Positions 4,158 to 39,974 of a stretch of 64,000 nt of DNA are shown piece after piece. Within the stretch, counting starts at the first letter, position 1. Each line of letters opens with the position of its first letter. The position numbers and the translations under genes were made by a program. The DNA lies in NCBI GenBank assembly GCA_965248695.1, contig CBDFKD010000002.1:2848001-2912000 (forward strand), written 5' to 3'. The stretch comes from Acidobacteriota bacterium. GTDB lineage: Bacteria; Acidobacteriota; UBA890; WLXD01. The notes below the pieces were generated by a model that was not told the DNA's origin, made no database searches, and was given only the letters and a program-made list of their open reading frames with translations.

Positions 4158-4237
4158 CAAGCTGGGTCCTTTCGCAGAGCGTGCCAGGGCGCGCGCAGAG
4201 GCCCCCAACCGAGTGATCTCAAGACCGATCGCTCATC

Positions 4238-9987: not shown

Positions 9988-10923
9988 CTAGTCGTCAGCG
10001 GGGCCTCCGAACGAAGCACTTCCGTGAGCGTACGCGTTGCAATTGTGGCGCGGCAACGCGTAGCGAGCCGACTCGGCAATCGGCGTGTCGATGTCGGCAT
10101 CTTCGACGGCGAACGCGAACGGATGTCCGGCCTCCGCCACAACCCTCTCGGAGGTCTGATCGAAGGCCTCGTGGATCCCATGCGGATAGCAGTACCCCCA
10201 ATCGAGATGGCCAACGAGCGACTTGATGAGATCGCAGGAAGCTTCGACCTCCCGCCTCTGGGCGTCCTCTTGCAGGTGGCTGAGGATGGCATGGCTGAAG
10301 CCGTGACCGCCTACTCCCATGCCTGCCTCGCAGAGATGCCGCACATCAGCATCGTCCAGGTAGAGCGTCCGCCATTCAGGCAACGTTCCCTCGAAGGCGT
10401 AGTCGAACAAGCCTCGAAGCGCCTCGCGGCGCGACTCTGAAGAGAGCTCCCAGTTGAACAGCCGCTTGATGCGCTTCGTCGGCGTGTCCGAGGGCTGTCC
10501 GACGTAGTGACCCATCCGAGCCTTGTCGATCTCCGGGAGCAGCTCTGGGTGGGCCGCGCGGACCCAGTCGAGGGCTTCGGCGCCACCCAGTCGCCCTACT
10601 GCGAGATGCAGCTTGTGGACATCGAGGAACTCGCCCGTCGTGATGGGACCAGCCGGCACATAGAAGATGCCGAAGATCTTCCTGGCCTGCAGTGCCGGCA
10701 GGACATGGGCGACGTGATCACGGAACCCATCGTCGAACGTCAGCAGCACTCCGGACGGCGCCGCACCTCCGGCAGTCCACTTCTCGAAGGAGTCCCGGTC
10801 AACGAATCCGTACACCTCGGCAAGGTAGTCGAGCTGCTGCTCGAAATGCCGTCTTGCCAAGTACGGAAAGTGCGGAAGACCTGGAGCACTAGGTCGCACG
10901 TAGTGGTACATCAGCGGCTTCAT
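9988..10923 (-). CDS. Polysaccharide deacetylase (CE4/NodB-like)
   Basis: LMYHYVR, LLTFDDG, GGHGFSH, YCYPHG motifs; likely start ATG 10923. Confidence 0.9.
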   Translation of the reverse strand: MKPLMYHYVRPSAPGLPHFPYLARRHFEQQLDYLAEVYGFVDRDSFEKWTAGGAAPSGVLLTFDDGFRDHVAHVLPALQARKIFGIFYVPAGPITTGEFLDVHKLHLAVGRLGGAEALDWVRAAHPELLPEIDKARMGHYVGQPSDTPTKRIKRLFNWELSSESRREALRGLFDYAFEGTLPEWRTLYLDDADVRHLCEAGMGVGGHGFSHAILSHLQEDAQRREVEASCDLIKSLVGHLDWGYCYPHGIHEAFDQTSERVVAEAGHPFAFAVEDADIDTPIAESARYALPRHNCNAYAHGSASFGGPADD

Positions 10924-10984
10924 CACACACGGTCCCGTCGCATGGAGGTCTCGCCCGCCCGGGCGCCGACCGAAGATAGCCAAG

Positions 10985-13249
10985 CTACTCTACGAAGACT
11001 TCCTCTCCTGCCTCGATGGCGTCCAGGACCATGCGCGCGATCTCAGGACGCATGAACCAATCCGGAGGCGCCTCGCCGCGCTGGAACCTGCTGCGAGCCT
11101 CGCTGCCGCTGATGTGGAGTTTCTCGTTGTCGGCGTGATGGAGAGTCCCGTCTTCTTCCATGTGGGCCCCGTGTTTCCGGGAATAGAAGACCGAATCGAA
11201 CTTGACCACCTCAATTCCCAGGTCGGGAAACCTGTCGAAAATCTCGTGCGAGGCGTGCGGATCGTACGACGTCCCGGCGCCTGTATGGTCCCTACCAACG
11301 ATGAAGTGCGTGCAACCGAAGTTCTTCCTGCATATTGCCGTGAAGACCGCCTCGCGGGGCCCTGCGTAGCGCGAGAACGTCGACAGCGTGGCGAACACCA
11401 CTTTGTCCTTCGGATAGCAGTGCTGGACCATGTACTCGTAACTCTTGACGATGTACTCGTTGCGAAAATCACCGCTCCGCTTCTTACCGATTACTGGATG
11501 GACGAACAGTCCGTCGCAGTGCTCTTTCTCGAGCGCCGCAAGCTGAATGTACTCATGGCTCCGATGGATCACATTCCGCGTATGAAAACCGACGACCTTG
11601 GTCCACATCCGCTCGCTGAACAACCTCCGAACCTGCCGCGGAGTCAACTCGTACCCCCTGTGATCCGAGATACTCCTCCGGAAGAGGCTGATCCGTCCCC
11701 CGAGGAAGAACGGCTGCAGCGCTAGCGCCCATGCCACACCGGGGTGCGCGGTGTCCGTCGTTCCATAGATCTTGTCGCAGAAACGCTCCCTATCGAACAG
11801 GTAGCTGTCACTGACGTCCAGCGTCCCGACGATGCCCTCGTCGTCGGCTAAAGCGACGGTGTCGCCGGACGCGATCTGGTCTGCGGTCTCCTTGTCCACA
11901 TCCAAGACCAGTGGGACTGTCCACAGGACGCCCGAAGGAAGCCGCATGTCATCGAGCACGCCGCCGAGCTCGCTCTCGGTCATGAATCCATCCAGCGGAC
12001 TGAACGTTCCGATGGCGATTTGCTCGAGGTCCATCAGCTGGTTGGCGTTCAGCACTATCTTCTGCAGCGAGTCCAGCTGAGCGCTCCCGCCGGCGGGCTC
12101 GCCTACGAGTCGATCAACGAGGATACCCCCGTGCGGCGCCACCAACGTGGAGCCGCTGGCATCGTCGAGGAGATAACGGATGTCCCGAGGCTGCTTCGCT
12201 CCGGGTACCTGCTCGATCCCTTCGAGAATCCGCTGCGCGTCAACCGCCCGGACCTGCTCGAAGAGCTTGTTCATCATCGACACACACTCCATCGGGAATC
12301 TTCCGATCGCGGTCTCGGCGGAGAGAATGACCCCGCTCGCGCCATCGAGCAGCGTGGCAATGACGTCATGCACTTCCGCTCGGGTGGGCCTGTTCTTCGC
12401 GACCATCGTTTCCAGGAGATTGGTCGCGACGAACACGTCTTTGCCCATCCGGGCTGCACGCCCGAGGACGATCTTCTGCGCGATCGGGACCTTCTCGATC
12501 GGGATCTCTTTGCTGAGGTCACCACGATCCAGCAGGAGAGCGTCCGACGCTTCGATGATCTCATCGAGTCTTTGTAGCGCGTCGGTACACTCGATCTTGG
12601 AGATGATCCTCATTCTTGATTGCGTCGCTTGGCGTACTGCGTCAACCGATGCGCCACCACGGACGAATGACACGGCAATGTCCTCTACGTTCGCCGCCAA
12701 GCCGATCTCGATCGATTGATAGTCCTTCTCGGACAGCGGGGGAAGGGCGAGTCGCCTGTCACCAGACGCCTCGATCGCCACCGCTTTGTTGCTCCCCAAG
12801 CTCCCGGACGTCAGCGCCTTGGCGCGAATATGACCCTTGCTGCTACTGCTGGTGTCGAGAACCCTCAAGATGAGCGACTCGAAATCCACGTACAGGAGAT
12901 CTCCCTCTTCGAGCTGCTCCACGACATGACTCGGGTGCAACGAGATTCCCTGCTGATCTCCCATCACCTCCCGCGTGAGGATCCTCAGATCGTCTCCCTC
13001 CCGAAGCTCCAATGACCCTGTGCGAACGCGCCCCGAGCGCACCTGCGAGCCCTCGGTATCGATGATGAACGGAATTCCGACTTTCTTCGAGAGATCGATT
13101 GACCGTTGCAGATCGTCCAGGCTCGAATGCGACATATTGACGCGGACGAAATCCACGCCCTTGTCTTTGAGCTTCCGCAGGGCAGCCTCGGTATTCGTCG
13201 CAGGCCCGAGCGTGACGATGAGCTTTGGCTTTCTCCACATACGATTCAT
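10985..13249 (-). CDS. Pyruvate kinase-like::sulfate adenylyltransferase (Sat) fusion
   Basis: N-half: VTLGPAT, RVNMSH, ISKIE, DRGDL, PTRAE, LSAETAIGRFP (PK barrel). C-half: PHGG, FSPLDGFM, HTRNVIHRSHEY, YAGPREA, HFIVGRDH, FMRPEI (Sat). One continuous ORF. Confidence 0.92.
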   Translation of the reverse strand: MNRMWRKPKLIVTLGPATNTEAALRKLKDKGVDFVRVNMSHSSLDDLQRSIDLSKKVGIPFIIDTEGSQVRSGRVRTGSLELREGDDLRILTREVMGDQQGISLHPSHVVEQLEEGDLLYVDFESLILRVLDTSSSSKGHIRAKALTSGSLGSNKAVAIEASGDRRLALPPLSEKDYQSIEIGLAANVEDIAVSFVRGGASVDAVRQATQSRMRIISKIECTDALQRLDEIIEASDALLLDRGDLSKEIPIEKVPIAQKIVLGRAARMGKDVFVATNLLETMVAKNRPTRAEVHDVIATLLDGASGVILSAETAIGRFPMECVSMMNKLFEQVRAVDAQRILEGIEQVPGAKQPRDIRYLLDDASGSTLVAPHGGILVDRLVGEPAGGSAQLDSLQKIVLNANQLMDLEQIAIGTFSPLDGFMTESELGGVLDDMRLPSGVLWTVPLVLDVDKETADQIASGDTVALADDEGIVGTLDVSDSYLFDRERFCDKIYGTTDTAHPGVAWALALQPFFLGGRISLFRRSISDHRGYELTPRQVRRLFSERMWTKVVGFHTRNVIHRSHEYIQLAALEKEHCDGLFVHPVIGKKRSGDFRNEYIVKSYEYMVQHCYPKDKVVFATLSTFSRYAGPREAVFTAICRKNFGCTHFIVGRDHTGAGTSYDPHASHEIFDRFPDLGIEVVKFDSVFYSRKHGAHMEEDGTLHHADNEKLHISGSEARSRFQRGEAPPDWFMRPEIARMVLDAIEAGEEVFVE

Positions 13250-13289: not shown

Positions 13290-14198
13290 TCAGATTTCCA
13301 CTTCGTATTTTTCGAAGACCTGGCCCCGCAAATCCGTCGTGGCCGCGTCAATTGCCTGTGCTAGATCCGCGGCAATGTGGTGCCGCCAATCGCCAGCCAC
13401 GCCCTTGCGCATGGATTCGCCTCGATCTTCCTCACCGCGCTTTCGGGAACCGTTCTCCGCATGTCGGCGAGTCATTTGCTCGAAAGAGGCGGCGTGGACC
13501 ATCTGTTCAACGACCGCGCCCGTGGCCTCTACTTCCAGGTAGTCGAGGACGCCCCTGGTAACCTCGAGCGGACTGGTGGACATCCGTTCATAGGTGATGC
13601 AGTGCACGCTTCCAGCGTATTCCAGTAGGGCCTCGTACTCCTTGATGATCCTGCTCTCCAAGTATTCGTGGGCGAACGCCGAGGTTATCTCTCGTTCCTT
13701 TTTTCTGCCCTTCCGCAGATTGCTGAAATGCCAGGAAGTGAGCTTGTCTTTGGGGTCTCGGATACAACAGATCTTCTTGATGGAGGGATAGAACGAGTCG
13801 ATGAAGTCGAGATGAAAAGTGTACGCGGGCGACGATTCACCCACTAGCGCCTTGTCGCCGCGTTGCTCGTCGCAATAGTCGCTATAGCGGTTCACCATCA
13901 GGCGGTAGAACTCCGCCTTCGAAACCTCGTCGGCAAGCGGAATGAGGTCGGCGAACACCTTGCCGAACTTGGTCAAATAGTCAGAGAGGGGGCGTACGAA
14001 CCGGTCCGCAGTATCCGGCTCGAGGCTGGCAATCGTGTTGAAGAAGTGGACCTCACCGGCGCGGCGCTCGTGGGCAGTGACCATGAACGGCAGGCTCGGG
14101 AAACTCGCAATGTTCGGATGCTCGTTCAACGTCGCAGACGTCCACAGCGTTCCGCTACGCTCGTGTCCGACGATGAGGAAGTCGGGGCGCAATCTCAT
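13290..14198 (-). CDS. PAPS-dependent sulfotransferase
   Basis: 5'-PSB loop IVGHERSGT, 3'-PB motif IRDPKDKLTS, C-terminal RKGVAGDWR. Confidence 0.9.
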   Translation of the reverse strand: MRLRPDFLIVGHERSGTLWTSATLNEHPNIASFPSLPFMVTAHERRAGEVHFFNTIASLEPDTADRFVRPLSDYLTKFGKVFADLIPLADEVSKAEFYRLMVNRYSDYCDEQRGDKALVGESSPAYTFHLDFIDSFYPSIKKICCIRDPKDKLTSWHFSNLRKGRKKEREITSAFAHEYLESRIIKEYEALLEYAGSVHCITYERMSTSPLEVTRGVLDYLEVEATGAVVEQMVHAASFEQMTRRHAENGSRKRGEEDRGESMRKGVAGDWRHHIAADLAQAIDAATTDLRGQVFEKYEVEI

Positions 14199-14403: not shown

Positions 14404-15126
14404 TCAGAGGGCATCCGAGGATGCCTCTGTCGCCAGCCATTCGGCCAACCGGAGCTCGAATGGATCGTCAATGTTGACGACCGGACGCTTCACGATCACG
14501 GCGGCCGCGTCGCAATCGATGATCCGACCCTCGTCGAGCAGGTGGCGCCGGGTCACCGAGTAACAAAGACCGTTGCGGTGATAGTACTGCGGCACGCTTT
14601 GCCGCAAGCTGTGTTGCGAGCCGTCTTCACGGTAGAAGCCGATCAGCCCATCGTCAGACACAGTCAGGGTCTTGTGGGGAGTGTAGTGCGCCGGCGTGGG
14701 ACTCACCGTCGCAGCCGCCGGATGCCCTCCGTCGACCATGGTGCGCACCGTGCGCTCGACGTCCTCCGGACGACGCAGCGGACTCGTAGGCTCCAGCAAC
14801 ACGGAGATCTCGAAGGTCCGGCCCCAGTGCTTCTCCGCCTCTAGCCAGGCATGCCTCCAGGTCTCGACGGAGCCAGCGCGATCCCCGGAAAGTTCAGCAG
14901 GACGGAGGAACGGGACCTCCAGCCCGTGATCCCGACCCTCTGCGGCAATCTCTTCGTCGTCTGTCGAGAGCAGCCGCGCATCGATCCACGGCAGCGCCGC
15001 GGCCGTTCTCGCGGCCCGGGCAACCAGCGACAGACTCGCAACGGTGCACAGGTTCTTTCTTGGAATGCTCTTCGACCCGCCGCGCGCAGGTACGACGGCG
15101 AGCACCGCGAGTCCCTCCGGCGTCAC
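14404..15126 (-). CDS. neuA: Acylneuraminate cytidylyltransferase (CMP-nonulosonate synthetase)
   Basis: VPARGGSKSIPRKN, STDD, PFLRPAELSGD, LEPTSPLR, NIDDPFEL. Confidence 0.93.
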   Translation of the reverse strand: MTPEGLAVLAVVPARGGSKSIPRKNLCTVASLSLVARAARTAAALPWIDARLLSTDDEEIAAEGRDHGLEVPFLRPAELSGDRAGSVETWRHAWLEAEKHWGRTFEISVLLEPTSPLRRPEDVERTVRTMVDGGHPAAATVSPTPAHYTPHKTLTVSDDGLIGFYREDGSQHSLRQSVPQYYHRNGLCYSVTRRHLLDEGRIIDCDAAAVIVKRPVVNIDDPFELRLAEWLATEASSDAL

Positions 15127-16136
15127 GGCGTGGCTGCCTCGGCGCCGAGCTCGACGACGCGCCCTTCAGCGCTGCTGGCTCGAATAGCCTCGACGATTCG
15201 CATCACTCTCGCTCCATCGTCCAACGTACACGTACTCGGCTCGGAGCCCGCGATCACGTCCAGGAACTCGCGCGCCACGGCGACGAACATGTCGTTTCGT
15301 TCGCACGTGAAGACTTCCTCCTGCCACACCTGCTTCCATTCGTGGCCGTACGCAATGCGATTCGGCTCGGCTGACCAAACGAGCGTCCCGTCCTCGCCGA
15401 GCAGACGGATGAACTTCTCGTGCGGCCGGCCATAGAGATCCAGATGCAGGGAGACTTGCAACGAGTCATAGGAGCACAGCGCATCCACGGTGTCGTCGGT
15501 GTCGATCTCGAGGTCGGACAGCTTCGCCACCCTTCCCAGAACCTCACGCGGCATGCCATGAAATCGGACCATCAAGTCAATCCAGTGACTTTCATCGAGC
15601 AAGGCGCCCCCACCCAAAGCTCGACTCGACATGAAGAACTCCTGATACGGCTCCCAGGGGTGCCAGTCCGCAAGGTGGGCCGACATGTGGAACTGAACGT
15701 GCCGTGGAGCTCCAATGACCCCGGCCGCGAGCAGGCTTCGAACGCGCTCCAGGGGCGGCCACCATCGCCAGCAGTACCCTAGAACCACGGGCGTGCCGGT
15801 GGCTTGCTGCGCCACCATCACTCGCTCGGCGTCGGACAGGGAGATTGCGACGGGCTTCTCCAGTAGCACCGGCAGCCGGTCGCGAAGCGCGGCGATCGTC
15901 TGATCGGGATGGAAGCTCGTGGGGGAGCAGATCGCGACGCCGTTCAGACCGCCGGCTCCGAGAGCCTCCTCCATCGTCTCGTGCGCGGCTTCGACCGCGA
16001 CCTCCGCGGCGAGCTCCTCTCGCCGATCTGCCCGTGGGTCGCAACACGAAATGCGACATCCCAGCGCCGAGAGGTTGCGCGCATGCCGTTGGCCCACGCT
16101 GCCGCTTCCGACGACAAGAATGTGCTGTCTCTCCAT
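15123..16136 (-). CDS. Gfo/Idh/MocA family NAD(P)-dependent oxidoreductase
   Basis: VVGSGSVGQRH, LLEKP, GGGALLDESHWID. Confidence 0.9.
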   Translation of the reverse strand: MERQHILVVGSGSVGQRHARNLSALGCRISCCDPRADRREELAAEVAVEAAHETMEEALGAGGLNGVAICSPTSFHPDQTIAALRDRLPVLLEKPVAISLSDAERVMVAQQATGTPVVLGYCWRWWPPLERVRSLLAAGVIGAPRHVQFHMSAHLADWHPWEPYQEFFMSSRALGGGALLDESHWIDLMVRFHGMPREVLGRVAKLSDLEIDTDDTVDALCSYDSLQVSLHLDLYGRPHEKFIRLLGEDGTLVWSAEPNRIAYGHEWKQVWQEEVFTCERNDMFVAVAREFLDVIAGSEPSTCTLDDGARVMRIVEAIRASSAEGRVVELGAEAATP

Positions 16137-16151
16137 CTGCGTTTCTGCCCG

Positions 16152-17696
16152 TTACCTGATACCTGCGACCATGCTCTCGTAGGCGTCCGAGTCGAACGGT
16201 ACCTCGATGAAACCCGGGCCCGACTCCGGGTTCCAAGCCGAGAGTGCTGATTCAACGGCACCCTGTGTCTCTGCCCTTGTCCCGGGAACCCCGAACGCGT
16301 CGAAACCGGCCACCCACGACCGTCCATCCATGACGAGCGGCGATTGTGTCAGCCCATCCCGTAGCGCACGGGTGCGTATCGATCCGAAGGCATTGTCAGT
16401 CATGAGGAGGACCAGAAGGGGTAGTCGATGACGGACGGCGATTTTCAACTCCGAAGGGTACATTCCGACGCTGCCATCGCCGAGCACTACGACGGTGGGT
16501 ACGGTGGAGTCGTGTAGTGCGGCACCGATAGCCATGGGCAACCCGGTTCCCATATAGCGAGCCTGTCCCGACATGAGGCACCAATCTGCCCGGCGGGCGG
16601 GCCAAGCATGCTCCCCGACGGTGCAGAAATACCCCGTGTCCATGACGAGCCTGACGGTTCCCAAGAAGCGTCGGTCCAGGGCCGCGAATACGCTTCCGGG
16701 CAAGAACCCCTGGCTCAGATGGGCATCAAGGTCGGCCAGTGCGCTGCGTAGGCGAGCGCCTCCCCATGCCTTGCCCTGGAGAGCGCCTGCGAGCTCCTCG
16801 AACGCCGAAGCGGGAAGACGAGCCGCGAACGCAAAGCCCTCGACGCCGGGAGTTGCAATGACCTCCACGTTGATCGCCGGACTGGCGAACGGCCGTACAG
16901 CAAGCAGTTCGCGCGCCGTCAGCCCGAGCCCGACCACCACATCGGCCTCGGGCAAGAGACTCGCCTCTGGAGTGAGCTCGAGCCCGCTCCCGGTGTAAAC
17001 GCCTGCCGCGTGTGCGAGCGTCTCGTCCACCAAGCCCTTGGCTGCGGCGGTGGAGAACACCGGGACCTCAAGTCGCGAGAGCTCCCCGCCCCAGTTCTGA
17101 CGGATCGCCAGGCTACCCGCGATGATCGCTGGCTTCCGCGAGCGGCGCACGAGATCGAGGCCCGTTCGGAGGTCGCCTGCCGGTCCCACTCCTGCTGCGA
17201 TTGGCGGCGCTATCGGTGCAGCGCCGTCGGCAAGTTCCAGCAGCACCGGGGCTGGCTCCTCCCGCTCCGCCAAGCTCGCCATCTCGTCGAAGCCCGTCCC
17301 TTCCGGCGTCAGCGAACCCACCGCCTTCGTCACTGCCGAGCACAGCGCTCGATGGTCCAAGCGCTTGTGGGCAACCCACGGCGGCGCTTCTGGAGCGACG
17401 GCCTCGGCGAGGTGCACTAGCGGGAACGATTCGAACCACGCGGCAGCCATTCCTGGCAGGGTGTTGGTAAGGCCAGGCCCCTTGATCGACAGAGAGACTC
17501 CGGCGCGACCGCTGAGCCGGCCGACGGTGGCGGCCATGAGCGCGCCACTGCCCTCGAAGTGCGTGAGGTGAAAGGGAACACCTCGCGCCTCCAGGGCGTC
17601 TATCAACGACAATGTCGCGCCGCTCCCCGGGATTCCGAAGACCTCGCGCACGCCTCGCGCGGTGATGTCATCGGCAAGCTGCTCGAACCGACTCAA
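16152..17696 (-). CDS. Thiamine-diphosphate-dependent enzyme (acetolactate synthase-like)
   Basis: VFGIPG, THFEGSGALMA, GPGLTN, MGTGLPMAIGA, GDG...N ThDP motif. TTG start at 17696 overlaps the upstream TGA. Confidence 0.88.
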   Translation of the reverse strand: MSRFEQLADDITARGVREVFGIPGSGATLSLIDALEARGVPFHLTHFEGSGALMAATVGRLSGRAGVSLSIKGPGLTNTLPGMAAAWFESFPLVHLAEAVAPEAPPWVAHKRLDHRALCSAVTKAVGSLTPEGTGFDEMASLAEREEPAPVLLELADGAAPIAPPIAAGVGPAGDLRTGLDLVRRSRKPAIIAGSLAIRQNWGGELSRLEVPVFSTAAAKGLVDETLAHAAGVYTGSGLELTPEASLLPEADVVVGLGLTARELLAVRPFASPAINVEVIATPGVEGFAFAARLPASAFEELAGALQGKAWGGARLRSALADLDAHLSQGFLPGSVFAALDRRFLGTVRLVMDTGYFCTVGEHAWPARRADWCLMSGQARYMGTGLPMAIGAALHDSTVPTVVVLGDGSVGMYPSELKIAVRHRLPLLVLLMTDNAFGSIRTRALRDGLTQSPLVMDGRSWVAGFDAFGVPGTRAETQGAVESALSAWNPESGPGFIEVPFDSDAYESMVAGIR

Positions 17697-18655
17697 GCAG
17701 AGCCCTCGAGCGCATCCTTGATCTTGGCCGCCGCAACACGGCAAACGACCCGCACGGCGTCGGGACTGAAACCACCGCAATGGGGCGTGATCAAGAGGTT
17801 GTCATGCGAGCTTGCATAGGCCACCAGGGGATCGTCCCCGACGTCGGGCTCGGCCGCCAGGACATCGAGCCCCGCGGCAGCGATATGCCCCGAATTCAGA
17901 CCCCTCAGCAGAGCCGCTTCATCGAGGATCTGACCTCTCGAGGTATTGACAATGACGATACCGGGCCGCGCACGGGCCAGGAGATCTGCCGACACGAGCC
18001 CTTCGGTCTGCTCGGTCAGATGAACGTGGATGGAGACGAAGTCGGCGCGCTCGAACACTGCTTCCAGAGCCACCGGTTCGATGGTCTCGGGGAAATGCTC
18101 GACGAAGGGATCGTGTCCGATGACCTCCATGTCGAAAGCACGCCCATATCGGGCCATCCACGTCCCGATCCGTCCACACCCCACGAGCCCGAGGCACCTG
18201 CCCTTGAGCATTCGCCCGGGGAATTCCTCCCGATCCCAGCGACGCTCTCGGACGTGCCTGACCGCCCCGACCAAGTTGCGTGCACAGGCCATCAACAGGG
18301 CCCAGGAGAGCTCAGCCGCGGGGGTCAGCTCTTGGAGCACGTCCGGGTTGTCCCTGAGCGTCCGCACGACGATCCCGCGCTCGTCCGCCACGCTCTGAGA
18401 AATGTGATCCGAACCCGTTGTCGCGCACGAGATAATGCGCAGGCGGGATGCAGCTGACAGCATCGAATCGCTGATACGGACCTTCATGGATGCGTCGAGA
18501 AACCCCTCGGCGAGAACCAGGGCAGCAGCGACTGCGGCGGGTTCCGCCGCGATGTGCTGGACGTTGGCCACCGGCGTCAGCACCTCGGCCGCGGCCTCGT
18601 AGCCCTCGGTCGCACCGACGTACGCGACCATACGCTCGTCAGTATCGGAACCCAT
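17693..18655 (-). CDS. D-isomer-specific 2-hydroxyacid dehydrogenase
   Basis: GLVGCGRIG, VNTSRG, LDVLAAEP, ITPHCGG. Confidence 0.92.
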   Translation of the reverse strand: MGSDTDERMVAYVGATEGYEAAAEVLTPVANVQHIAAEPAAVAAALVLAEGFLDASMKVRISDSMLSAASRLRIISCATTGSDHISQSVADERGIVVRTLRDNPDVLQELTPAAELSWALLMACARNLVGAVRHVRERRWDREEFPGRMLKGRCLGLVGCGRIGTWMARYGRAFDMEVIGHDPFVEHFPETIEPVALEAVFERADFVSIHVHLTEQTEGLVSADLLARARPGIVIVNTSRGQILDEAALLRGLNSGHIAAAGLDVLAAEPDVGDDPLVAYASSHDNLLITPHCGGFSPDAVRVVCRVAAAKIKDALEGSA

Positions 18656-19482
18656 TAGCCAACCGGCTCAGGCCAGGCCAACGCTCGCTCACCGAGGCAG
18701 TACTGGAGCGTGGCTCGATTCGCCTCGCCAAGCGGTGCCTCCTGGAGCTCGAAGACGGTCACGTCTGCTGGCCCTGCCGGTTCAAACTTCCAGTTCCGGT
18801 AGAGGTGGGCGGCGAGGAAGCGACTCGTGGCGGTGCGCCCGTCGACGATGACGAGCGCTCCGGGCAAGAGCAACGGCTCGATGCGCGCCACGTCGGCGGA
18901 CATCACAACGTAGTCTGGGCAATCCCACGAGACGTTGGCGACATCGCCGTCCACAGCTGCCGGGTCGGGGCCGTCCAGATAGATCAGATCGGGCAGGACG
19001 GCCGGCAGTCGGTCGTAGTAGTGACAGACGCGCCCTTGGAAGGTTCCCGCTGTCGCACCTGAGTGGTGCATCGTGACGAAATCACCAAGGCGTGAGGGAA
19101 GCATCTCCTTCGTGCGCTCGATCCAAGTCTTCGACGTGTCGACAGCGTGCAATTCGAAAGGGGTGGAGTTGCGGAGAACCGGCGGGCTGGACAGACGATC
19201 CCAGTCGCTACGATTCTTCAACAGTGCATCAGCCATCACCACGGTCGAATAACCGAGGCCGAACTCCAGAATCGTAAGGACCCGCCGCTGACGGACCACG
19301 GCGTGCAAGCGTGCGAGATCCGGATAGCTGGGCCGAATACGTTTCGCGTCGCCCTCGCGACCCTCCAGCACCTCCAGGAGACCTTCTCCGCGTAGGTACT
19401 CGAGCGCCCCAGCCTCTCCGTCGGCTGAAAACAACGCGGCGACCTCGCGAGGCCCCAATCCAACCTCACTCACTTGCGTCAA
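18655..19482 (-). CDS. Putative class I SAM-dependent methyltransferase
   Basis: ILEFGLGYST motif I, HAVD, DLIYLDGP, LIVVDGR. Confidence 0.6.
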   Translation of the reverse strand: MTQVSEVGLGPREVAALFSADGEAGALEYLRGEGLLEVLEGREGDAKRIRPSYPDLARLHAVVRQRRVLTILEFGLGYSTVVMADALLKNRSDWDRLSSPPVLRNSTPFELHAVDTSKTWIERTKEMLPSRLGDFVTMHHSGATAGTFQGRVCHYYDRLPAVLPDLIYLDGPDPAAVDGDVANVSWDCPDYVVMSADVARIEPLLLPGALVIVDGRTATSRFLAAHLYRNWKFEPAGPADVTVFELQEAPLGEANRATLQYCLGERALAWPEPVG

Positions 19483-20680
19483 CGGCGGCGATGGGAGATC
19501 CGGAGGAGCTCTCCGCGTCGAGGTACGTCAACGTCTTGCCGACCCTCAGTGGCGCCGAAGCTATGACCTCGGCGATGCGCGCGCCGGCGGCGCCGTCACC
19601 GAACATCAACGAGCGCTCGTGGCGACCGTGCGCCATCTGGTGCTCGATCGCCGCGCCGATCGCATCTGCTTCGTGCGGAACATCCATGACGTTCTCGGCT
19701 CGTTCGCGGCCGTGTTGTCGACTGCCGATATTCACGCATGGGGTACCGAGGAAAGCTCCCTCACGAAGCCCTGAGGAGGAGTTGCCGACGACGCACACGG
19801 CGCTGCGCAGGAGCCGAGCGTAGTCTTCCGCCGAAAAGTGACGGTATAGCCTCAGGTAGTCGGGCTGGTGCTTCTCACGAAACACGCGCAACCCCTTCGA
19901 GATGTCGTCGGATCCGGCATCGACGTTGGGCCACAGCCAGACGACCTGGGTGCCCTGTCGCCCGATCCGACCCACCGCCTCGAGCGTCTGGGCGACCTGG
20001 TCCAGCCCCTGGCCGTACTCCGTGGTCACGGGATGCTGAAGAACGATCATGTACGGCTTGGTCGAATCGAGCTCCGCCCCGACGCCGCCGGGCCGCTCGA
20101 AGATATCCGCCGGCAGAGTAAGGTCGTTGTCGACAAGAAGGTCGAGAGAGGGACATCCGGTGAGGTGCACGGTGTCGGGATCCTCTCCGAGGCGAAGGAG
20201 GAAATCCCGAGCACGTTGGGTAGCGGGGAAGTGCAGGTGCGACAGCTTGGTGACAGCGTGACGCACGCTCTCATCGATCGAACCAGTTACCTCGCCGCCC
20301 TGAGTGTGGGCAACGGGAATGTTCATGTAGCTCGCCGCAATGGCGGTGGCAATCGTCTCGAACCGATCCGCAACGGTGAGCACGACGTCCGGTCGCAGGT
20401 TGTCGAAGTGGGTCGCCAGCTCGACGATTCCCAGGCCGGTTGATTTCGCCATTGTCGTCGGCGTCTCGCCTTCGACGATCGTGTGCACGACCCTGTCCGG
20501 TTCGAACCCGTCTTCCCTGATCAGGTCGACGACTCGGCCGAAGCGATACAACAACGCCGAGGCGCCGACAATGAGCTGTAGCTCGAGGTCCGAGCGAGCC
20601 TGGGCGGCCTCGAGGAAGCTCTTGATCCGAGCATAGTTCGCGCGGCTGTTGACGATCGCGCAGACCTTACGTGTCGGCAT
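19466..20680 (-). CDS. neuC: UDP-N-acetylglucosamine 2-epimerase (hydrolysing)
   Basis: SRANY, ADRFE, HTQGGE, DESVRHAVTKLSHLHF, LQHPVT, GNSSSG, NIGSRQ; start ATG 20680. Confidence 0.93.
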   Translation of the reverse strand: MPTRKVCAIVNSRANYARIKSFLEAAQARSDLELQLIVGASALLYRFGRVVDLIREDGFEPDRVVHTIVEGETPTTMAKSTGLGIVELATHFDNLRPDVVLTVADRFETIATAIAASYMNIPVAHTQGGEVTGSIDESVRHAVTKLSHLHFPATQRARDFLLRLGEDPDTVHLTGCPSLDLLVDNDLTLPADIFERPGGVGAELDSTKPYMIVLQHPVTTEYGQGLDQVAQTLEAVGRIGRQGTQVVWLWPNVDAGSDDISKGLRVFREKHQPDYLRLYRHFSAEDYARLLRSAVCVVGNSSSGLREGAFLGTPCVNIGSRQHGRERAENVMDVPHEADAIGAAIEHQMAHGRHERSLMFGDGAAGARIAEVIASAPLRVGKTLTYLDAESSSGSPIAAVDASE

Positions 20681-21707
20681 CCAGGTCCTCCCAGCGAAGC
20701 AACCTTGCGGGCTCCACGTCCCGCGCCAGGCGTCGGCCAATCAGGTCGTCGAGGGCGTCGGCAGAGATGCCGGTCGCCGGTTTCTTGAACGCGAGCATCT
20801 CGCGAGTCAATCGCGTGCCGGCGGCAAGCGGCCTCGCGGGCGCCACACTCTTACCGAACATCTCACGTGTTTCTGTGAGCAATTCTGCAATCTCATCCTT
20901 GTCCACCGGACGAGTGTCCATCTCGTGGAACGCATCTCGGGCACGCACAAGCTGTGCCAGCTCGTCGAAGGTGAGCGAGGCGGTGACATCCGGACCGAAC
21001 ATCGCTCGATCGAAAGTCACATGAACTTCGATCATCCGCGCCCCGCGAGCCAGTGCTGCAAGCGCAGGATACGGGGTACCGGAATGGTCAGAAAGCCCTA
21101 CCGGGCAACCGTACCGTGCGCTCATGTCCGCGAGCGCGTTGAGGCCTACGGCATCAAGCGGCGTCGGATACTGACTGGTGCACTGGAGCAGCAGGAACTC
21201 GGCGTCGCGCTGGCGCAGAAAAGCGACCACGCTATCGATGTCCGCCCAGCTGCTCATCCCGGTGCTGACCAGGATCGGGCCTCCTGCGACGAGCATGTCC
21301 TCGATCAAATCGCGACCGCGCACTTCCCCGGAGCCGACCTTCCAGGCAGGCACCCCGAGATCACGGAGCAGCTGCACCGCCTCCCGTGAGAAGGGCGAGC
21401 TGAGAAAATGCAGGCCGCGCCGGCGCGCGTGATCCGCCAGCTGTGCCCATTGCTCCGTCGAGAACTCCATGCGCTGCCAATAATCGTAGCGGCTGGCGTC
21501 CTGGGTACTGAAGCGCACCCGGAACGGCTCATCCAGCGTCGACTCGGCGGCCGCGATATGCGTCTGAAATTTGACCGCATCGGCGCCAGCATCGGCCACA
21601 GCGTCGACAAACGCGTGCGCTGTGCCCAGCGACCCGTCATGCGCCTGCGCCACTTCGGCGACAAGGATCGGCTTGCCCGAGGAGATGTCGAACGAAGGAT
21701 CTGTCAT
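20667..21707 (-). CDS. neuB: N-acetylneuraminate (nonulosonate) synthase with C-terminal SAF domain
   Basis: VAEVAQAHDG, AVKFQ, LSSPF, KVGSGE, QCTSQYP, GLSDHS, KKPATGI. Confidence 0.95.
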   Translation of the reverse strand: MTDPSFDISSGKPILVAEVAQAHDGSLGTAHAFVDAVADAGADAVKFQTHIAAAESTLDEPFRVRFSTQDASRYDYWQRMEFSTEQWAQLADHARRRGLHFLSSPFSREAVQLLRDLGVPAWKVGSGEVRGRDLIEDMLVAGGPILVSTGMSSWADIDSVVAFLRQRDAEFLLLQCTSQYPTPLDAVGLNALADMSARYGCPVGLSDHSGTPYPALAALARGARMIEVHVTFDRAMFGPDVTASLTFDELAQLVRARDAFHEMDTRPVDKDEIAELLTETREMFGKSVAPARPLAAGTRLTREMLAFKKPATGISADALDDLIGRRLARDVEPARLLRWEDLDADT

Positions 21708-21796
21708 TGCTTCCTACCCGTCATGCTGCGCCACTATTTGATCGCATCCGACGATTCTCTGCTGCCCCTGATATCGGCCTGAGGCCCACGAGCCCT

Positions 21797-23614
21797 CTAC
21801 GTAGCGTCCGAGTTGGTGACGCCGGCCGCCATGGTCCTGAAACGACTATTGTCGCGTAGCAGCTCGTCGAAGCTCCCGACGCCAACCAACCGACCCTCTT
21901 CCAGGAGAAATATCCGGTCGACATCCCGGACCGTCGTCAGCCGGTGCGCTATCAGGATAATGGTCCTGTCCTTCTCCAGCCGGGCAATGGACTCCATCAC
22001 GGCGCGCTCGGTGGTGGTGTCGAGGGAGCTGGTCGCCTCGTCCAAGATCAGAACCGTAGGATCTGCGTAGAGAGCGCGAGCAATACCGAGTCGCTGACGT
22101 TGTCCGCCGGAGAGTCGAACCCCTCGCTCGCCAACGACGGTCTCATAGCCGTGCGGGAGTTGCTCGGCGATGAACTCGTGTAGCTGGGCCATGCCGGCGG
22201 CTCTCTCGATCGCCTCGTAGTCGATCTCCCGCTCCGGAACTCCGAACGCGATGTTCGCAGCGACGCTGTTGTCCGACAAGTAGATATCTTGCGGAACATA
22301 GCCGATCGAGTCCTGCCACTGACGCATCGTAGCTTCGTCCAGAAGCACCCCATCGACTCGAATCTCTCCCTGTCTCGGACGCAGAAGGCCGAGAGTCAGA
22401 TCGACGACCGTTGTTTTCCCCGCGCCGGTGCCGCCGACAATGGCCACGCTGCTGCGCGCCGGAATCTCGAGGCTCAGATCGTGGATCACCACGTTTTCGC
22501 TTTCTGGGTAGGTATAGCTGACGCCGAGCCATTGAATTCGGTCATCGAGCGACAACCGCTGTCGTTGGCGCGCGGCCCCCAACTGCGTTCGAGATTCGGA
22601 GTACAGATCCGCGTGGATATTCGCCACCGTCGGTAGGCCGAACCGAAGGTTGGTTCCGGCGGTGTATATCTGCTGAACCGCAGGCAGCAGTCGGGACGCC
22701 GCCAGTGCGTAGACGCCTAGCACGGGAAGCACTCCGCCCAGCTCTTTGCCGGTCGCCATCAGAAAGACCGTCAACGCCAGGATCCCTCCGAAAGCGAGTG
22801 CTTCGACCACGTAGCGTGGTAACACCGACAGCGTGCCGACGGCGACCTTGTGTCGCGAGAAACGGAGTGAGGGGCGCAGGAACCGTTTCAGGTAGAACTC
22901 CTCGCGACCCGTGAGCTTGAGGGCCTTGATGCCGCCGAAGGCCTCGGACGCTGCGGTGAAGCGCTCCCGGTTGGCGCGCAACCGATCCTGCCCGCGGCGC
23001 TCGAGCATCCGGCTGACGCTGAAGTAGATGCCCAGATACACCGTACCCGCCAACAGGGCCACGACCCGGGCCACCGACGCGTCGACGATTACCAGCAGGA
23101 CGACCAGCGCGCCTGCGAGCAATCCGAAAGCCGGAATACGTAGACACGGACGGAAGACGTAGTTCACGAGGACGTCAACTTCCGATAGCAAGCTCTTCGA
23201 CAGGTCCGCAGAATTACGACCCAGGAAGAACGTGTATGGCCTTCCCAGATATCGTCGAAACAGCCGCGTGCTCAGGGAGTGGCGGCGCATTTCTACAAAG
23301 CGCACCATGGCGTACTCGGTGACCAAACGGATGAGCGCGCTGACGAGCACCATCGCCAGCGAAGCAACACCGAGCACGAGCAAGAAGTCGTCCACCGACG
23401 TCATGCCCAGGACCTCGTATGCGCTCCGCAGCCGTGGATCCGTCCGCGCAATCTCGGGACTCCCGAGCACGGCGAGGAACGGGATCACGGACGCCACTCC
23501 GATGGTCTCGAGCAAGGCACTGACGGCCATCAGACCGCCCACCAGAGTGCCGCGCCTGAGCTCCTTGGGCGTTAGCAACCCGAGGATCATTCGCAGACTC
23601 GTTGCCGTCTTCAT
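21797..23614 (-). CDS. ABC transporter permease+ATPase (PglK/MsbA-like lipid-linked glycan flippase)
   Basis: 6-TM domain, Walker A GGTGAGKT, LSGGQRQR, ILDEATSSLD; likely start ATG 23614. Confidence 0.92.
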   Translation of the reverse strand: MKTATSLRMILGLLTPKELRRGTLVGGLMAVSALLETIGVASVIPFLAVLGSPEIARTDPRLRSAYEVLGMTSVDDFLLVLGVASLAMVLVSALIRLVTEYAMVRFVEMRRHSLSTRLFRRYLGRPYTFFLGRNSADLSKSLLSEVDVLVNYVFRPCLRIPAFGLLAGALVVLLVIVDASVARVVALLAGTVYLGIYFSVSRMLERRGQDRLRANRERFTAASEAFGGIKALKLTGREEFYLKRFLRPSLRFSRHKVAVGTLSVLPRYVVEALAFGGILALTVFLMATGKELGGVLPVLGVYALAASRLLPAVQQIYTAGTNLRFGLPTVANIHADLYSESRTQLGAARQRQRLSLDDRIQWLGVSYTYPESENVVIHDLSLEIPARSSVAIVGGTGAGKTTVVDLTLGLLRPRQGEIRVDGVLLDEATMRQWQDSIGYVPQDIYLSDNSVAANIAFGVPEREIDYEAIERAAGMAQLHEFIAEQLPHGYETVVGERGVRLSGGQRQRLGIARALYADPTVLILDEATSSLDTTTERAVMESIARLEKDRTIILIAHRLTTVRDVDRIFLLEEGRLVGVGSFDELLRDNSRFRTMAAGVTNSDAT

Positions 23615-23690
23615 CTGCGGACGCCTGACAACCGTGCCACGGCGAACACCCGGCCGAAGCAAGGCACCCCGGGGCCGGCAACCGATTCGG

Positions 23691-24830
23691 TCACGCCACG
23701 CCACGGGATACGAGGTTGAGAAACATTTTCTCGTACTCGGCGCAGATCCTCTCGATTCCGAAGCGGTCGCGGACACGCGCCTCGATGAGCGCCGCATCGA
23801 GGGCGTCTGTCGCATCCAGCGCGTCCAGGATAGTCCGTGCCAGACCGCCGGGATCGTCGGGCGGCGCCAACCATCCGTTGCTCCCCTCCTCGACGATCTC
23901 CGTACCGCCGCCAGGGCAGTCGGTTGCCACCACAGGGATTCCCAGACCCAACGACTCGAGCATCGAGTTCGATAGCCCCTCGTATCGAGAAGACGACACG
24001 AACAGGTCGGCCGCACGAATCGCCGGGAACGGATTCTCGCAGAATCCCGGTAGATGAACCGACCCCACGAGACCCTCGGCGTCTATCTGCGCTTCTAGAT
24101 CGGCTCGGTCCTCGCCTTCGCCGAGGACCGTCAACGTCGCCTCGACCCGTTCTCTACGAACCGCGGCAAAGGCCTCCAAGAGCACATCGTACCCCTTCTG
24201 CCAACTCAGGCGTCCGACGGAAACAAGGTGCGGCCCAGTACCTCCGCGACCGATAAACTCGGCGCTCGACAGCGGCTCAGATGCCGCCGCCTTGATGCGG
24301 TCGATGTCCACCGGGTTGTAGATGCGCACAAAACGTTTCCGAGACGCCGGGAGACGTCCCACGGCGTCCTGAATCATGAAGTCGCTCTGGGCGACGACCC
24401 GATCGGCCCCCAGCACCATGAGGGTCGAAGCTAGCGTCTGGGCCCACCGAGCCCATGGCGCGCGCCGACCCGCTTCGTCGAGGAAAGCACCAATGGTGTT
24501 GCCGAGCCGAGTTATGACCCGGGTTCCCGATGGGTAACGAGGACGAGCGAGCACTGAGGCGACTGCCAAGCCGAGCGTGGCCATGACCACGTCTGGCCTC
24601 CAATCTCGAACGACTCGTGCGAGAGGAAGAACACAGCGCCGCGCTCGTTTGGCACCGAGCTCGAAGATACGGACGTCCTGTGGAACGTCCCGCACGAACA
24701 CCCCCTCGCGGAGACCGACCGCCAGGGCCACCTTGAACCGGTTTCGATCGAGACCACGGGCCAAGTGGACAATGACTCTCTCGGCCCCCCCGCCCTGGAG
24801 ATTGGGCACAACGAACAGAACCCGAATCAC
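23691..24830 (-). CDS. Glycosyltransferase family 4
   Basis: GGGAERV, VGRLSWQKG, SSRYEGLSNSMLES. Confidence 0.93.
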   Translation of the reverse strand: MIRVLFVVPNLQGGGAERVIVHLARGLDRNRFKVALAVGLREGVFVRDVPQDVRIFELGAKRARRCVLPLARVVRDWRPDVVMATLGLAVASVLARPRYPSGTRVITRLGNTIGAFLDEAGRRAPWARWAQTLASTLMVLGADRVVAQSDFMIQDAVGRLPASRKRFVRIYNPVDIDRIKAAASEPLSSAEFIGRGGTGPHLVSVGRLSWQKGYDVLLEAFAAVRRERVEATLTVLGEGEDRADLEAQIDAEGLVGSVHLPGFCENPFPAIRAADLFVSSSRYEGLSNSMLESLGLGIPVVATDCPGGGTEIVEEGSNGWLAPPDDPGGLARTILDALDATDALDAALIEARVRDRFGIERICAEYEKMFLNLVSRGVA

Positions 24831-24834
24831 GCGA

Positions 24835-25761
24835 TTACCCGGCTCGCGCCGCTGCTTGATCGCCGCCGCTCTTGACGAATCTCCCCTTCAGTGAGTCACC
24901 GAGCCGTGTGGCACTCAGGATTGCGTTGAGGCCACCCTTCACCCAGCGCAATCCGCGCCCACGCTCGAGGGCACGCCGTACCACCTCGTCGGCGTCGTTC
25001 TTTCCTATCTCGAGATGGCGCTGTCCGGCGCGACTCTTGCGAAACCGAGTCGGGCTGAAGCCGGTTGTTCTGATCGATTCGCTCCGAAGCTCTAGCTCCG
25101 TCAAGAGCCGTCTCAACGTGGATGCGGTGAAATAGCTCAGGTGCGCAGGATACTCGATGACGTTCCACGACTGGCGCAGGATTCGCCTGGAGACCGAATC
25201 GAAGTTCGGTGTGGTGATGTAGAGCAGCCCGCCTGGCCTGAGGGCCGTCAGAATCGCCTGCAGCCCGAGTCTCGGCTCCGGCATGTGTTCGATCACCTCG
25301 ATCATGGCGATGATATCGAAGTGGTCAGGATCGAAAACAGCGGGACTGTAGTCGCCTTCGACCATCACGAACCCGCGTTCGCGGCCGTGACGGAGCGCGT
25401 CCTCGGAGTACTCGGTGCCGTAACACTCCCACCCCCGGGCCTGCGCCGCTTCGAGCAACAACCCGCGCCCACAGCCAATATCCAGGATCCGGCCGCTCCG
25501 GCGGTAGGGCTCGAAGGAGTCGGCGAGCTCACCCAGTCTTCTGCGGGTAGCGTCCGAGACCCAAGCATCGGGATCGTACTTTCTCTCGTACTTGTGCGCG
25601 TAGTGCGCCTCGAGCTCCTCAGCAGACGGCGTCCTGGCCGCGTGGACAAAGCCGCAGCTGCTGCAGATGCCCAGATAGGCACGCTCGTAACCCTTGAGCG
25701 GTGCGAGCGCGCCGCGCCGACAGCAGGGACAATCGTCACGACCTAAAGGAGCCAACACCAT
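24835..25761 (-). CDS. Class I SAM-dependent methyltransferase with N-terminal Zn ribbon
   Basis: CPCC..CSSC, ILDIGCGRG, EVIEH, LRPGGLLYITTPN, HLSYF. Confidence 0.9.
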   Translation of the reverse strand: MVLAPLGRDDCPCCRRGALAPLKGYERAYLGICSSCGFVHAARTPSAEELEAHYAHKYERKYDPDAWVSDATRRRLGELADSFEPYRRSGRILDIGCGRGLLLEAAQARGWECYGTEYSEDALRHGRERGFVMVEGDYSPAVFDPDHFDIIAMIEVIEHMPEPRLGLQAILTALRPGGLLYITTPNFDSVSRRILRQSWNVIEYPAHLSYFTASTLRRLLTELELRSESIRTTGFSPTRFRKSRAGQRHLEIGKNDADEVVRRALERGRGLRWVKGGLNAILSATRLGDSLKGRFVKSGGDQAAARAG

Positions 25762-39676: not shown

Positions 39677-39974
39677 GGGCGAAACCCCAGCGATGCTCGC
39701 GGGAATTGTATGCCACCGATAGGAACGGCGGCGTCTGCGTGAACGACGCTAGCGACGTTCCGCGAGGCGATCCCGCACTGTTTCGGATTCGTCCCGTGAG
39801 CGCTCCAGACAGGTGCTACGCGCGCTCTACGCTGTCGCGATCGGCGATCGCCCCCGATGTACACTGGCGTCCCGAACGGTCACTTTCTGCGCCGTCGCAA
39901 CCGCATTCCGTGCCCACGGAGGGCAATCGGTGAACAGGCGCGAGCAGGACCCTGCAAGTACATCCGCTGCGTCC

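Follow-up and report, generated by a model that had tools for sequence, protein, structure and literature searches.

Why would a bacterium join a pyruvate kinase (PK) barrel to an ATP sulfurylase (Sat), in a gene placed directly behind that of a sulfotransferase? The question is raised by a fusion gene located on the minus strand (10985..13249) of a DNA stretch from an Acidobacteriota bacterium. The whole stretch analysed, 64,000 nucleotides (nt) in length and hereafter called the window, corresponds to C2:2848001-2912000 of the genome. 3'-Phosphoadenosine 5'-phosphosulfate (PAPS), universally the donor of sulfate, is the product of a thermodynamically uphill synthesis. A sequence-only reading of the window had offered two answers, namely that the PK domain regenerates ATP from phosphoenolpyruvate (PEP) to drive the activation of sulfate, or that it stands in for the adenosine 5'-phosphosulfate (APS) kinase, CysC. 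On the evidence of conserved residues and of the relatives of the gene, its product (P0001) is predicted to be a working ATP sulfurylase equipped with a catalytically competent PK barrel that belongs to a distinct clade of the PAPS pathway, and we lean, with some reserve, towards the view that this barrel converts ADP to ATP again at the expense of PEP, in the service of PAPS synthesis.

Architecture and active sites of the fusion protein

The PK-Sat gene consists of an uninterrupted open reading frame (ORF) of 754 amino acids (aa), which begins with an ATG codon (N-terminus MNRMW) and ends with the stop codon at 10985-10987 (-), included in the coordinates given above. An alternative TTG start at 13351 would yield a longer form running into the upstream gene. 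Three Pfam domains follow one another along the polypeptide chain. The PK barrel, made of the A and B domains (residues 6-323, 12281..13234 (-)), matches PF00224 over positions 2-328 of the 328 positions of the profile (E 1.3e-72), with a score of 245.1 bits for a cut-off of 30. It is followed by the PUA_2 domain of ATP sulfurylase (residues 371-524, 11678..12139 (-); PF14306, E 2.2e-43) and by the ATP-sulfurylase catalytic domain of the FHTRN/GRDHTG subtype (residues 533-742, 11024..11653 (-); PF01747, E 4.8e-76). The linker of about 47 aa which separates both halves (residues 324-370, 12140..12280 (-)) is devoid of any Pfam domain and consists of three short helices and a subsequent low-confidence stretch. 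In the Pfam scan, P0001 gave no match to the C-terminal allosteric domain PK_C (PF02887), the PK part ending around residue 336, and no APS kinase domain (PF01583) was found in the polypeptide. The NCBIfam sulfate adenylyltransferase models are both passed (NF003166, 411.8 for a cut-off of 387; TIGR00339, 342.7 for 322.95), while the pyruvate-kinase equivalog TIGR01064 is just missed (286.3 bits for a cut-off of 306.4). The AlphaFold2 (AF2) model, built with 119 homologues in the alignment, reaches a predicted local distance difference test score (pLDDT) of 91.1 and a predicted template modelling score (pTM) of 0.88, and is weak only in the linker, where the mean pLDDT of residues 341-360 is 54-63 and residues 349-352 stay under 50.

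The single ORF described by the sequence-only reading, with a PK barrel lacking its C-terminal domain, a linker and a full Sat, is thus recovered from both the open frame and the Pfam domains. That reading had also named a stop or a frameshift between the domains as evidence against it; none occurs, and the unbroken architecture recurs in other organisms. An artefact of assembly or a frameshift was rejected on the same ground, since all of the 119 other listed homologues, as well as 80 kept loci from elsewhere, some of them cut by contig ends, display the same unbroken architecture.

The PK half retains the catalytic residues R36, N38, S40, H41, D64, R71, K155, K218, E220, D244, T276 and E312. 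In E. coli PykF, the catalytic and ligand-binding residues, with the roles assigned in the structural literature, are R32, N34, S36, H37, D66, T67, R73, K156, K220, E222, D246 and T278. Their counterparts upon alignment to the PK structure 8eq3, R36, N38, S40, H41, D64, T65, R71, K155, K218, E220, D244 and T276, are all present, and among 119 sequences each of them is either invariant or conserved to at least 90%. More generally, no variation occurs among the 119 family members at the positions which, in solved PKs, correspond to the catalytic residues and to the ligands of Mg, K+ and the nucleotide phosphates, the mean column identity of the 119-sequence family being 59%. The first-shell residues are also kept in free-standing members of the clade.

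Around this conserved core, the PK half bears the signature residues E66, S68, Q69, C221, D241, N277 and L278. Compared to 19 canonical PKs, the clade exhibits the changes A to D241, Q to N277, M to L278, P to S/A68, K/R to Q69 and G to S/T42, together with E66. The motif changes that had been read from the letters of the window, DRGD for ARGD, TNLL for TQML and DTEGSQVR for DTKGPEIR, hold against the solved PKs. In the rabbit numbering, the clade possesses T/S113, E114 and Q117, which fits neither of the two signatures known for PKs, T113/K114/E117 in the K+-dependent and L113/Q114/K117 in the K+-independent enzymes, as described in PMC8835810 and PMC4284704.

A tree of 84 barrels (LG+G4, quick search) was built from 24 PK-Sat, 12 PK-Sat-CysC and 4 PK-CysC proteins, 21 short free-standing forms, 4 others and the 19 canonical PKs, the latter coming either from the host genome or from genomes in which the fusion is also present. 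All 65 forms devoid of the C domain group on one side of a branch with a Shimodaira-Hasegawa-like approximate likelihood ratio (SH-aLRT) support of 100, apart from the 19 canonical PKs. Within this clade, the PK half of the window is sister to a triple fusion (support 98).

In the Sat half, residues R558 and N559, H562 and H565 of the HxxH motif, and the GRDH stretch 652-655 are invariant across the family, and so is H556. With respect to the QxRN and GRD(H)xG motifs, Q is replaced by H556 and the loop Ala by T656, two positions which, as in the yeast enzyme, would line the sulfate pocket. All of the solved Sats that were aligned have Q at the position of H556, in agreement with the earlier remark that FHTRNV occurs here for the usual FQTRNP, a motif which reads FQTRN(P/V/A) in the comparison with solved Sats. 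Among the 120 best matches to the Sat half, H and T occur together in 103 and Q and A together in 10, and the combination of FHTRN with GRDHTG, as judged from these alignments, is a subtype of Sat and not an accident. The idea of H556/T656 as a special adaptation to the fusion with PK was rejected: free-standing Sats of 383-409 aa carry the same pair.

Distribution of the fusion and its partners in the PAPS pathway

The association of PF00224 with PF14306 and PF01747 occurs in all of the 119 other listed homologues, which share 54-63% identity with P0001 over 99-100% coverage and bear the database names 'sulfate adenylyltransferase' or 'pyruvate kinase'. An APS kinase domain is additionally present in 19 of them, and one (P0011) is extended to a nucleotidyltransferase-PK-Sat protein. 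When a single genome of each species was scanned, relatives proved to be encoded in 401 stretches, the best 80 of which were examined. The PK-Sat fusion is present in all 80 kept loci, of which 60 are bacterial, 19 archaeal and 1 unassigned. The carriers include the candidate phyla radiation (CPR)/Patescibacteria, DPANN, Chloroflexota, Gammaproteobacteria, Planctomycetota, Acidobacteriota, Omnitrophota and two cultured Bacteroidota, Flavobacterium sp. Leaf82 and [Flexibacter] sp. ATCC 35103 (loci L081 and L083). Genes of the fetched loci were called with a simple longest-ORF heuristic, and because the greedy step removed the PK-Sat call of L082, counts made on that gene set refer to 79 loci.

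In the two cultured Bacteroidota, a PK-Sat-CysC triple fusion of 925 aa is preceded by a CysQ-like gene and by one for a protein of 2442 aa that belongs to no known family, and a NeuB-type glycan cluster is missing from these two loci. Three small PK-Sat genomes contain a second PK barrel in frames of 343-348 aa, with canonical-like scores of 335-387 bits (G033:C1:66056-67012, G036:C2:19274-20212 and G017:C25:53862-54821). These three genomes gave no PK_C match at any position, and their second barrels may be PKs of the canonical type without the C domain.

CysC accompanies the fusion. It is fused to the C-terminus of PK-Sat in 24 of the 80 loci and forms a separate ORF within the locus in 32 others, 22 of these being located at no more than 70 nt from PK-Sat or overlapping it. 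In the remaining 24 loci CysC lies outside the fetched flanks, and 17 of the 24 corresponding genomes contain a strong PF01583 match elsewhere (E of 1e-40 or lower). The P-loop and the DGD motif are kept in the aligned CysCs which are fused to, or adjoin, PK-Sat. These CysCs also read DI[RK]ENN[RK]LIA where the canonical CysC of the host genome reads DRDTNIRRIG; the shift by one position of the Arg following the Asp points to a putative distinct CysC subfamily that travels with the PK clade.

Other genes recur in the 80 loci as well. Homologues of the sulfotransferase of the window are found in 44 loci, a number which, like all sulfotransferase counts reported here, is a lower bound obtained with a single jackhmmer seed. 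CysQ-like phosphatases of 3'-phosphoadenosine 5'-phosphate (PAP) occur in 23 loci, NAD-epimerases in 35, DegT aminotransferases in 26, NeuC in 20, NeuB in 17, cytidine monophosphate (CMP)-sugar synthases in 21, and deacetylases of the family that neighbours PK-Sat in the window in 10. Four loci of Chloroflexota display an adjoining 'Sat-CysC' of 563-587 aa (L014:9842-11605, L015:14093-15787, L027:2828-4519 and L036:4494-6251), in which the CysC P-loop is intact but QTRN, HxxH and GRD have disappeared from the Sat half; owing to this loss, PK-Sat represents the only intact Sat of these four loci. A Sat-CysC from NC10 (L037:2175-3965) keeps QTRNPLHRVH and has GPD in place of GRD.

Searching with the PK half alone enlarges the clade to PK-CysC fusions without Sat (P0156, P0158, P0218 and P0235) and to many barrel-only proteins of 330-365 aa. 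A metagenome scan performed with these short forms gave 80 loci, 67 with a free-standing PK and 13 with PK-Sat. A cysC gene lies within 150 nt of the free-standing PK in 38 of the 67 loci, downstream in 33 and upstream in 5, and elsewhere in the locus in 5 more, which amounts to 43 of the 50 loci whose flanks could be used. It was not found in 7 loci in spite of flanks of at least 700 nt, and the flanks of the remaining 17 are too short. In one locus with a free-standing PK, the genes directly upstream encode a sulfotransferase and a TauE-type permease.

The fusions go further still. A single ORF of at least 1075 aa (L079:3-3230) encodes PK-PUA-Sat-CysC-CysQ. It is through such further fusions that the PK module is tied to the whole PAPS cycle. 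CysC-CysQ fusions in both orders, a CysC-sulfotransferase and a PQ-loop membrane domain linked to CysC are also observed among the PK-Sat loci, these additional sulfation-toolkit fusions being located at L023:5652-7028, L048:15057-16379, L070:12246-13580, L043:12257-13648, L024:2391-3311 and L039:12258-13058.

The host genome (5.89 Mb in 2 contigs, 96.4% complete) encodes a canonical PK of 499 aa with its C domain, far from the window, and a canonical sat (FQTRNP, GRDHAG) adjoining a cysC of 199 aa, approximately 1.6 Mb from the window. Its sole PF01583 match (C2:4480131-4480577) is located outside the window. Since canonical pyk, sat and cysC genes are available elsewhere in the genome, neither half of the fusion is a sole copy, and an APS kinase is available in trans. 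A short way from the host sat-cysC pair, an ORF looks like an inositol-monophosphatase/CysQ-type protein. A match spanning both the PK and the Sat halves was found in none of 40 relatives of the host (4 from the genus, 6 from the family, 15 from the order and 15 from the phylum), and the best homologue of P0001 is 63% identical. Within the relatives searched, it looks as if the PK-Sat gene had arrived by horizontal transfer, as a member of a glycan cluster that varies.

A proposed ADP-recycling domain and its rivals

The PK-Sat protein would act within a three-step scheme. Sat would turn ATP and sulfate into APS. An APS kinase, which in the host genome would be the unlinked canonical CysC, would convert APS to PAPS and free ADP. 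With PEP, the PK domain would then regenerate ATP from this ADP on the spot, so that ADP stays scarce and ATP plentiful. Summed up, the scheme would read ATP + sulfate + PEP -> PAPS + PPi + pyruvate (PPi, pyrophosphate), and PAPS would be supplied to the neighbouring sulfotransferase, to give a sulfated surface glycan containing nonulosonic acid. The PK-Sat gene would have been gained horizontally with the variable glycan cluster.

Recycling of ADP is the favoured reading because the partners of the clade make, use and recycle PAPS, because it retains the residues that hold PEP, Mg, K+ and the nucleotide phosphates, and because an in vitro precedent exists. The commonest partner of the free-standing PK is the APS kinase, the sole step that produces ADP. 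As to the precedent, PMC9885120 reports that a PK/PEP system is needed for the accumulation of PAPS by human PAPSS1 in vitro, owing to the trapping of the APS kinase in a dead-end complex of enzyme, APS and ADP. Regeneration of ATP from PEP, the first of the two earlier answers, accordingly stands as the reading best supported by the comparative analysis, and it is from this comparison, not from an assay, that we infer it.

Several observations weigh against a dedicated ADP-recycling function. The direction of the PK reaction and the nature of its acceptor are deduced from residue conservation only, and the substrate may have changed, given the clade-specific residues that adjoin the catalytic ones and occur in none of the 19 canonical PKs. 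The PK domain is more often joined to Sat, which makes no ADP, than to CysC, and with the host cysC situated 1.6 Mb away, any local hand-over of ADP would have to take place in trans. In 27 of 50 carrier genomes the fusion is the sole PF00224 match, and a PK_C domain occurs anywhere in the genome in only 17 of the 50; the domain may double as a general PK. Finally, in 7 of the 80 genomes, all of them metagenome-assembled genomes (MAGs) of 0.6-1.3 Mb from Saccharimonadota and DPANN lineages, either no CysC or nothing other than weak P-loop matches was found, and 5 of these 7 have a sulfotransferase beside PK-Sat.

Among the rival explanations, a mainly regulatory or structural role of the PK-like domain survives best and is nevertheless unlikely. 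The domain would serve as a sensor of PEP or adenylates, or as a scaffold for the oligomerization of Sat and CysC, with little catalytic flux. The pathway offers precedents for dead domains, those mentioned in bioRxiv 10.64898/2026.04.02.716029 being the ATP sulfurylase of Penicillium, which possesses an APS-kinase-like allosteric domain, and the APS kinases of Thiobacillus and Entamoeba, which possess an inactive Sat-like domain. The degenerate Sat domains found beside PK-Sat in Chloroflexota are of the same kind, and the pTM of the AF2 model suggests a fixed arrangement of PK and Sat. However, dead domains of this pathway lose their motifs, whereas the catalytic residues of PK are invariant in the 119 sequences and kept in the free-standing members as well.

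It is rather improbable that the PK-like domain performs a different phosphoryl transfer of the PAPS cycle, directed to another acceptor nucleotide or using another enol- or hydroxy-acid phosphate. Such a change of substrate would account for the clade-wide D241, N277, L278, Q69, E66 and S/A68, none of which occurs in the 19 canonical PKs, for the residues T/S113, E114 and Q117, which match neither of the K+ signatures given in PMC8835810 and PMC4284704, and for a TIGR01064 score below the equivalog cut-off. All first-shell catalytic residues of PK are kept, however, and the neighbourhoods suggest no other substrate, the constant partners being Sat, CysC, CysQ and sulfotransferases. A more pointed version, in which D241, N277, L278, Q69, E66 and S68 would adapt the PK fold to a phosphoryl transfer of the PAPS cycle that is new and depends on PEP, perhaps including the step from APS to PAPS in the small genomes where no CysC was found beside PK-Sat and a sulfotransferase, seems to us a doubtful proposition.

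The second of the earlier answers, a PEP-dependent APS 3'-OH kinase that would replace CysC and represent a new type of PAPS synthase, has become very unlikely. In its favour, cysC was not found in the window, 7 of the 80 genomes lack a convincing CysC, and five of these, with full flanks, carry a sulfotransferase at 1-3 genes from PK-Sat, one of the five also having a CysQ-like gene; the invariant substitutions near the PK active site across the clade point in the same direction. The distribution of CysC argues against it: a CysC with intact P-loop and DGD is fused in 24 and located within the locus in 32 of the 80 loci, 17 of the other 24 genomes encode one elsewhere, and the host genome has its own sat-cysC. 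PK-CysC fusions would be redundant if PK performed the CysC reaction, as would the PK and cysC pairs which, with cysC beside the free-standing PK in 38 of 67 loci, are the commonest free-standing form. The residues of canonical PKs that hold the nucleotide phosphates are unchanged, and the seven genomes lacking CysC are MAGs of 0.6-1.3 Mb without stated completeness. The sequence-only reading had itself named two findings that would speak against an unusual PK: a cysC does adjoin homologous loci, while the PK domain does not cluster with housekeeping Pyk.

That the domain is simply the glycolytic PK of the cell, fused by chance and unrelated to sulfation, would agree with the 27 and 17 of 50 genomes counted above and is extremely improbable, given the separate canonical Pyk of 499 aa in the host genome, the position of the fused domain in a clade apart from canonical PKs and the PAPS-pathway genes that consistently accompany this clade.

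The glycan cluster of the window and comparison with known systems

The PK-Sat gene is inserted in an operon-like row of minus-strand genes. Directly upstream, as the sequence-only reading had noticed, a sulfotransferase of the Sulfotransfer_1 family (13290..14198 (-); PF00685, E 9.3e-26) is separated from PK-Sat by a 39-nt spacer. Directly downstream, a polysaccharide deacetylase (9988..10983 (-); PF01522, E 7.2e-13) begins with a TTG codon situated 1 nt past the PK-Sat stop. The statement that the window contains no APS kinase also proved correct: tblastn with two CysC sequences detected neither an APS kinase nor a CysC remnant in the window, including downstream of PK-Sat (best E 0.36), and the sole PF01583 match of the genome lies outside. 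The rest of the glycan cluster (14404..25761 (-), Pfam scans) comprises a CTP_transf_3 cytidylyltransferase, a GFO/MocA oxidoreductase, a thiamine pyrophosphate (TPP) enzyme, a 2-hydroxyacid dehydrogenase, a NeuC-like 2-epimerase, NeuB, an ATP-binding cassette (ABC) exporter, a GT4 protein and methyltransferases.

Some other features of the window deserve mention. The TPP-dependent enzyme, with three TPP domains, and the D-2-hydroxyacid dehydrogenase form a pair (16152-18655 (-)) inside the nonulosonic-acid/sulfation cluster, which is not among the recurrent neighbours of other PK-Sat loci. On the strand opposite to the cluster, a 939-aa protein (27353-30172 (+)) fuses a carbamoyltransferase (N and C domains) to a class I methyltransferase and adjoins a GDSL-like protein. 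Two proteins encoded in tandem, 667 and 677 aa long (2-2002 and 2175-4208 (-)), whose Sulfatase-family domain covers only the C-terminal half (approximately residues 260-570), are adjoined by an asparagine synthase and a GT4 protein. Four large ORFs of 573, 503, 509 and 445 aa, located in the glycan region or beside it (30895-33773, 35118-36647 and 39813-41150), gave no Pfam match at an E of 0.001 or lower; some of them may not be genes, given a G+C content of about 63%.

If the ADP-recycling reading is true, PEP becomes the effective phosphoryl donor for sulfation, through a natural PK module wired to Sat, CysC and CysQ. A new accessory principle would thereby join the pyrophosphatase and regulatory-domain fusions of the PAPS pathway, and a functionally distinct, so far unannotated subfamily of pyruvate kinases would be defined. 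In CPR and DPANN genomes the fusion is often the sole PK homologue, and the generic names under which the proteins are filed can lead reconstructions of their metabolism astray. The module marks glycan-sulfation clusters in many phyla, which is of relevance to sulfated and sialylated extracellular polymers, and enzymatic sulfation could gain a compact PAPS synthase that regenerates its own ATP. With Flavobacterium sp. Leaf82 and [Flexibacter] sp. ATCC 35103 as cultured carriers, the proposal is testable.

As regards the novelty of the architecture, the sequence-only reading recognized no characterised enzyme of this type, and the literature agrees: a full-text search, the coverage of which leaves out most subscription journals, retrieved no publication on a PK-Sat or PK-CysC fusion. 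No chain of the PDB covers both folds, Foldseek aligning PK and Sat as two separate folds (TMq of 0.48 or lower), and no sequence match spans the two. The architecture is already in public databases under generic names, and it is the functional unit that appears undescribed. PK-Sat appears to add a variant to the machinery known for the synthesis of PAPS and, at the same time, a functional subfamily to the PKs.

Among the known systems closest to it are the PAPS synthases, such as human PAPSS1/2 and the SAT/APS kinase of Aquifex (2gks), which share with it the Sat fold (E 1.2e-63 for 2gks), the pathway and the logic of fusing consecutive steps. The protein of the window differs from them by the lack of an APS kinase domain and by its N-terminal PK barrel, none being described in PAPS synthases, although 24 of 80 relatives of P0001 hold an APS kinase on the same chain, as PAPS synthases do. 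Canonical PKs, e.g., E. coli PykF (1pky) and the rabbit muscle enzyme, align over the full A and B barrel (E about 1e-51, residues 6-336 of P0001 with 2-338), and P0001 keeps their catalytic Lys, Glu, Asp, Thr and Arg residues together with the K+ ligands. In contrast, it lacks their allosteric/tetramerization C domain, falls in a separate clade with the invariant D241, N277, L278, Q69, E66 and S68, and scores below the TIGR01064 equivalog cut-off. The closest solved Sat is the ATP sulfurylase of Methanothermococcus thermolithotrophicus (8a8d; PMC10322725), with an E of 1.3e-96, 40% identity and a template modelling (TM) score of 0.93 on the target; it is a stand-alone enzyme with FQTRN and GRDHAG, whereas the P0001 family displays FHTRN and GRDHTG.

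Helper domains are not foreign to this pathway. According to the introduction of bioRxiv 10.64898/2026.04.02.716029, stramenopiles possess a trifunctional PAPS-pathway fusion with a pyrophosphatase, and no PK fusion is among the PAPS-pathway fusions described in the passages concerned. Like the arrangements of Penicillium and of Thiobacillus and Entamoeba, that of stramenopiles attaches to Sat or CysC a helper or regulatory domain which pulls or controls an unfavourable pathway; here, the helper is a PK barrel. The closest likeness in chemistry is the engineered regeneration system in which PK and PEP are combined with a PAPS synthase, where the ADP of the APS kinase is removed and ATP restored, as proposed for PK-Sat. 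In PMC9885120 this system is put together in the laboratory from individual enzymes of commercial origin, whereas the coupling proposed here would be natural and genetically hard-wired.

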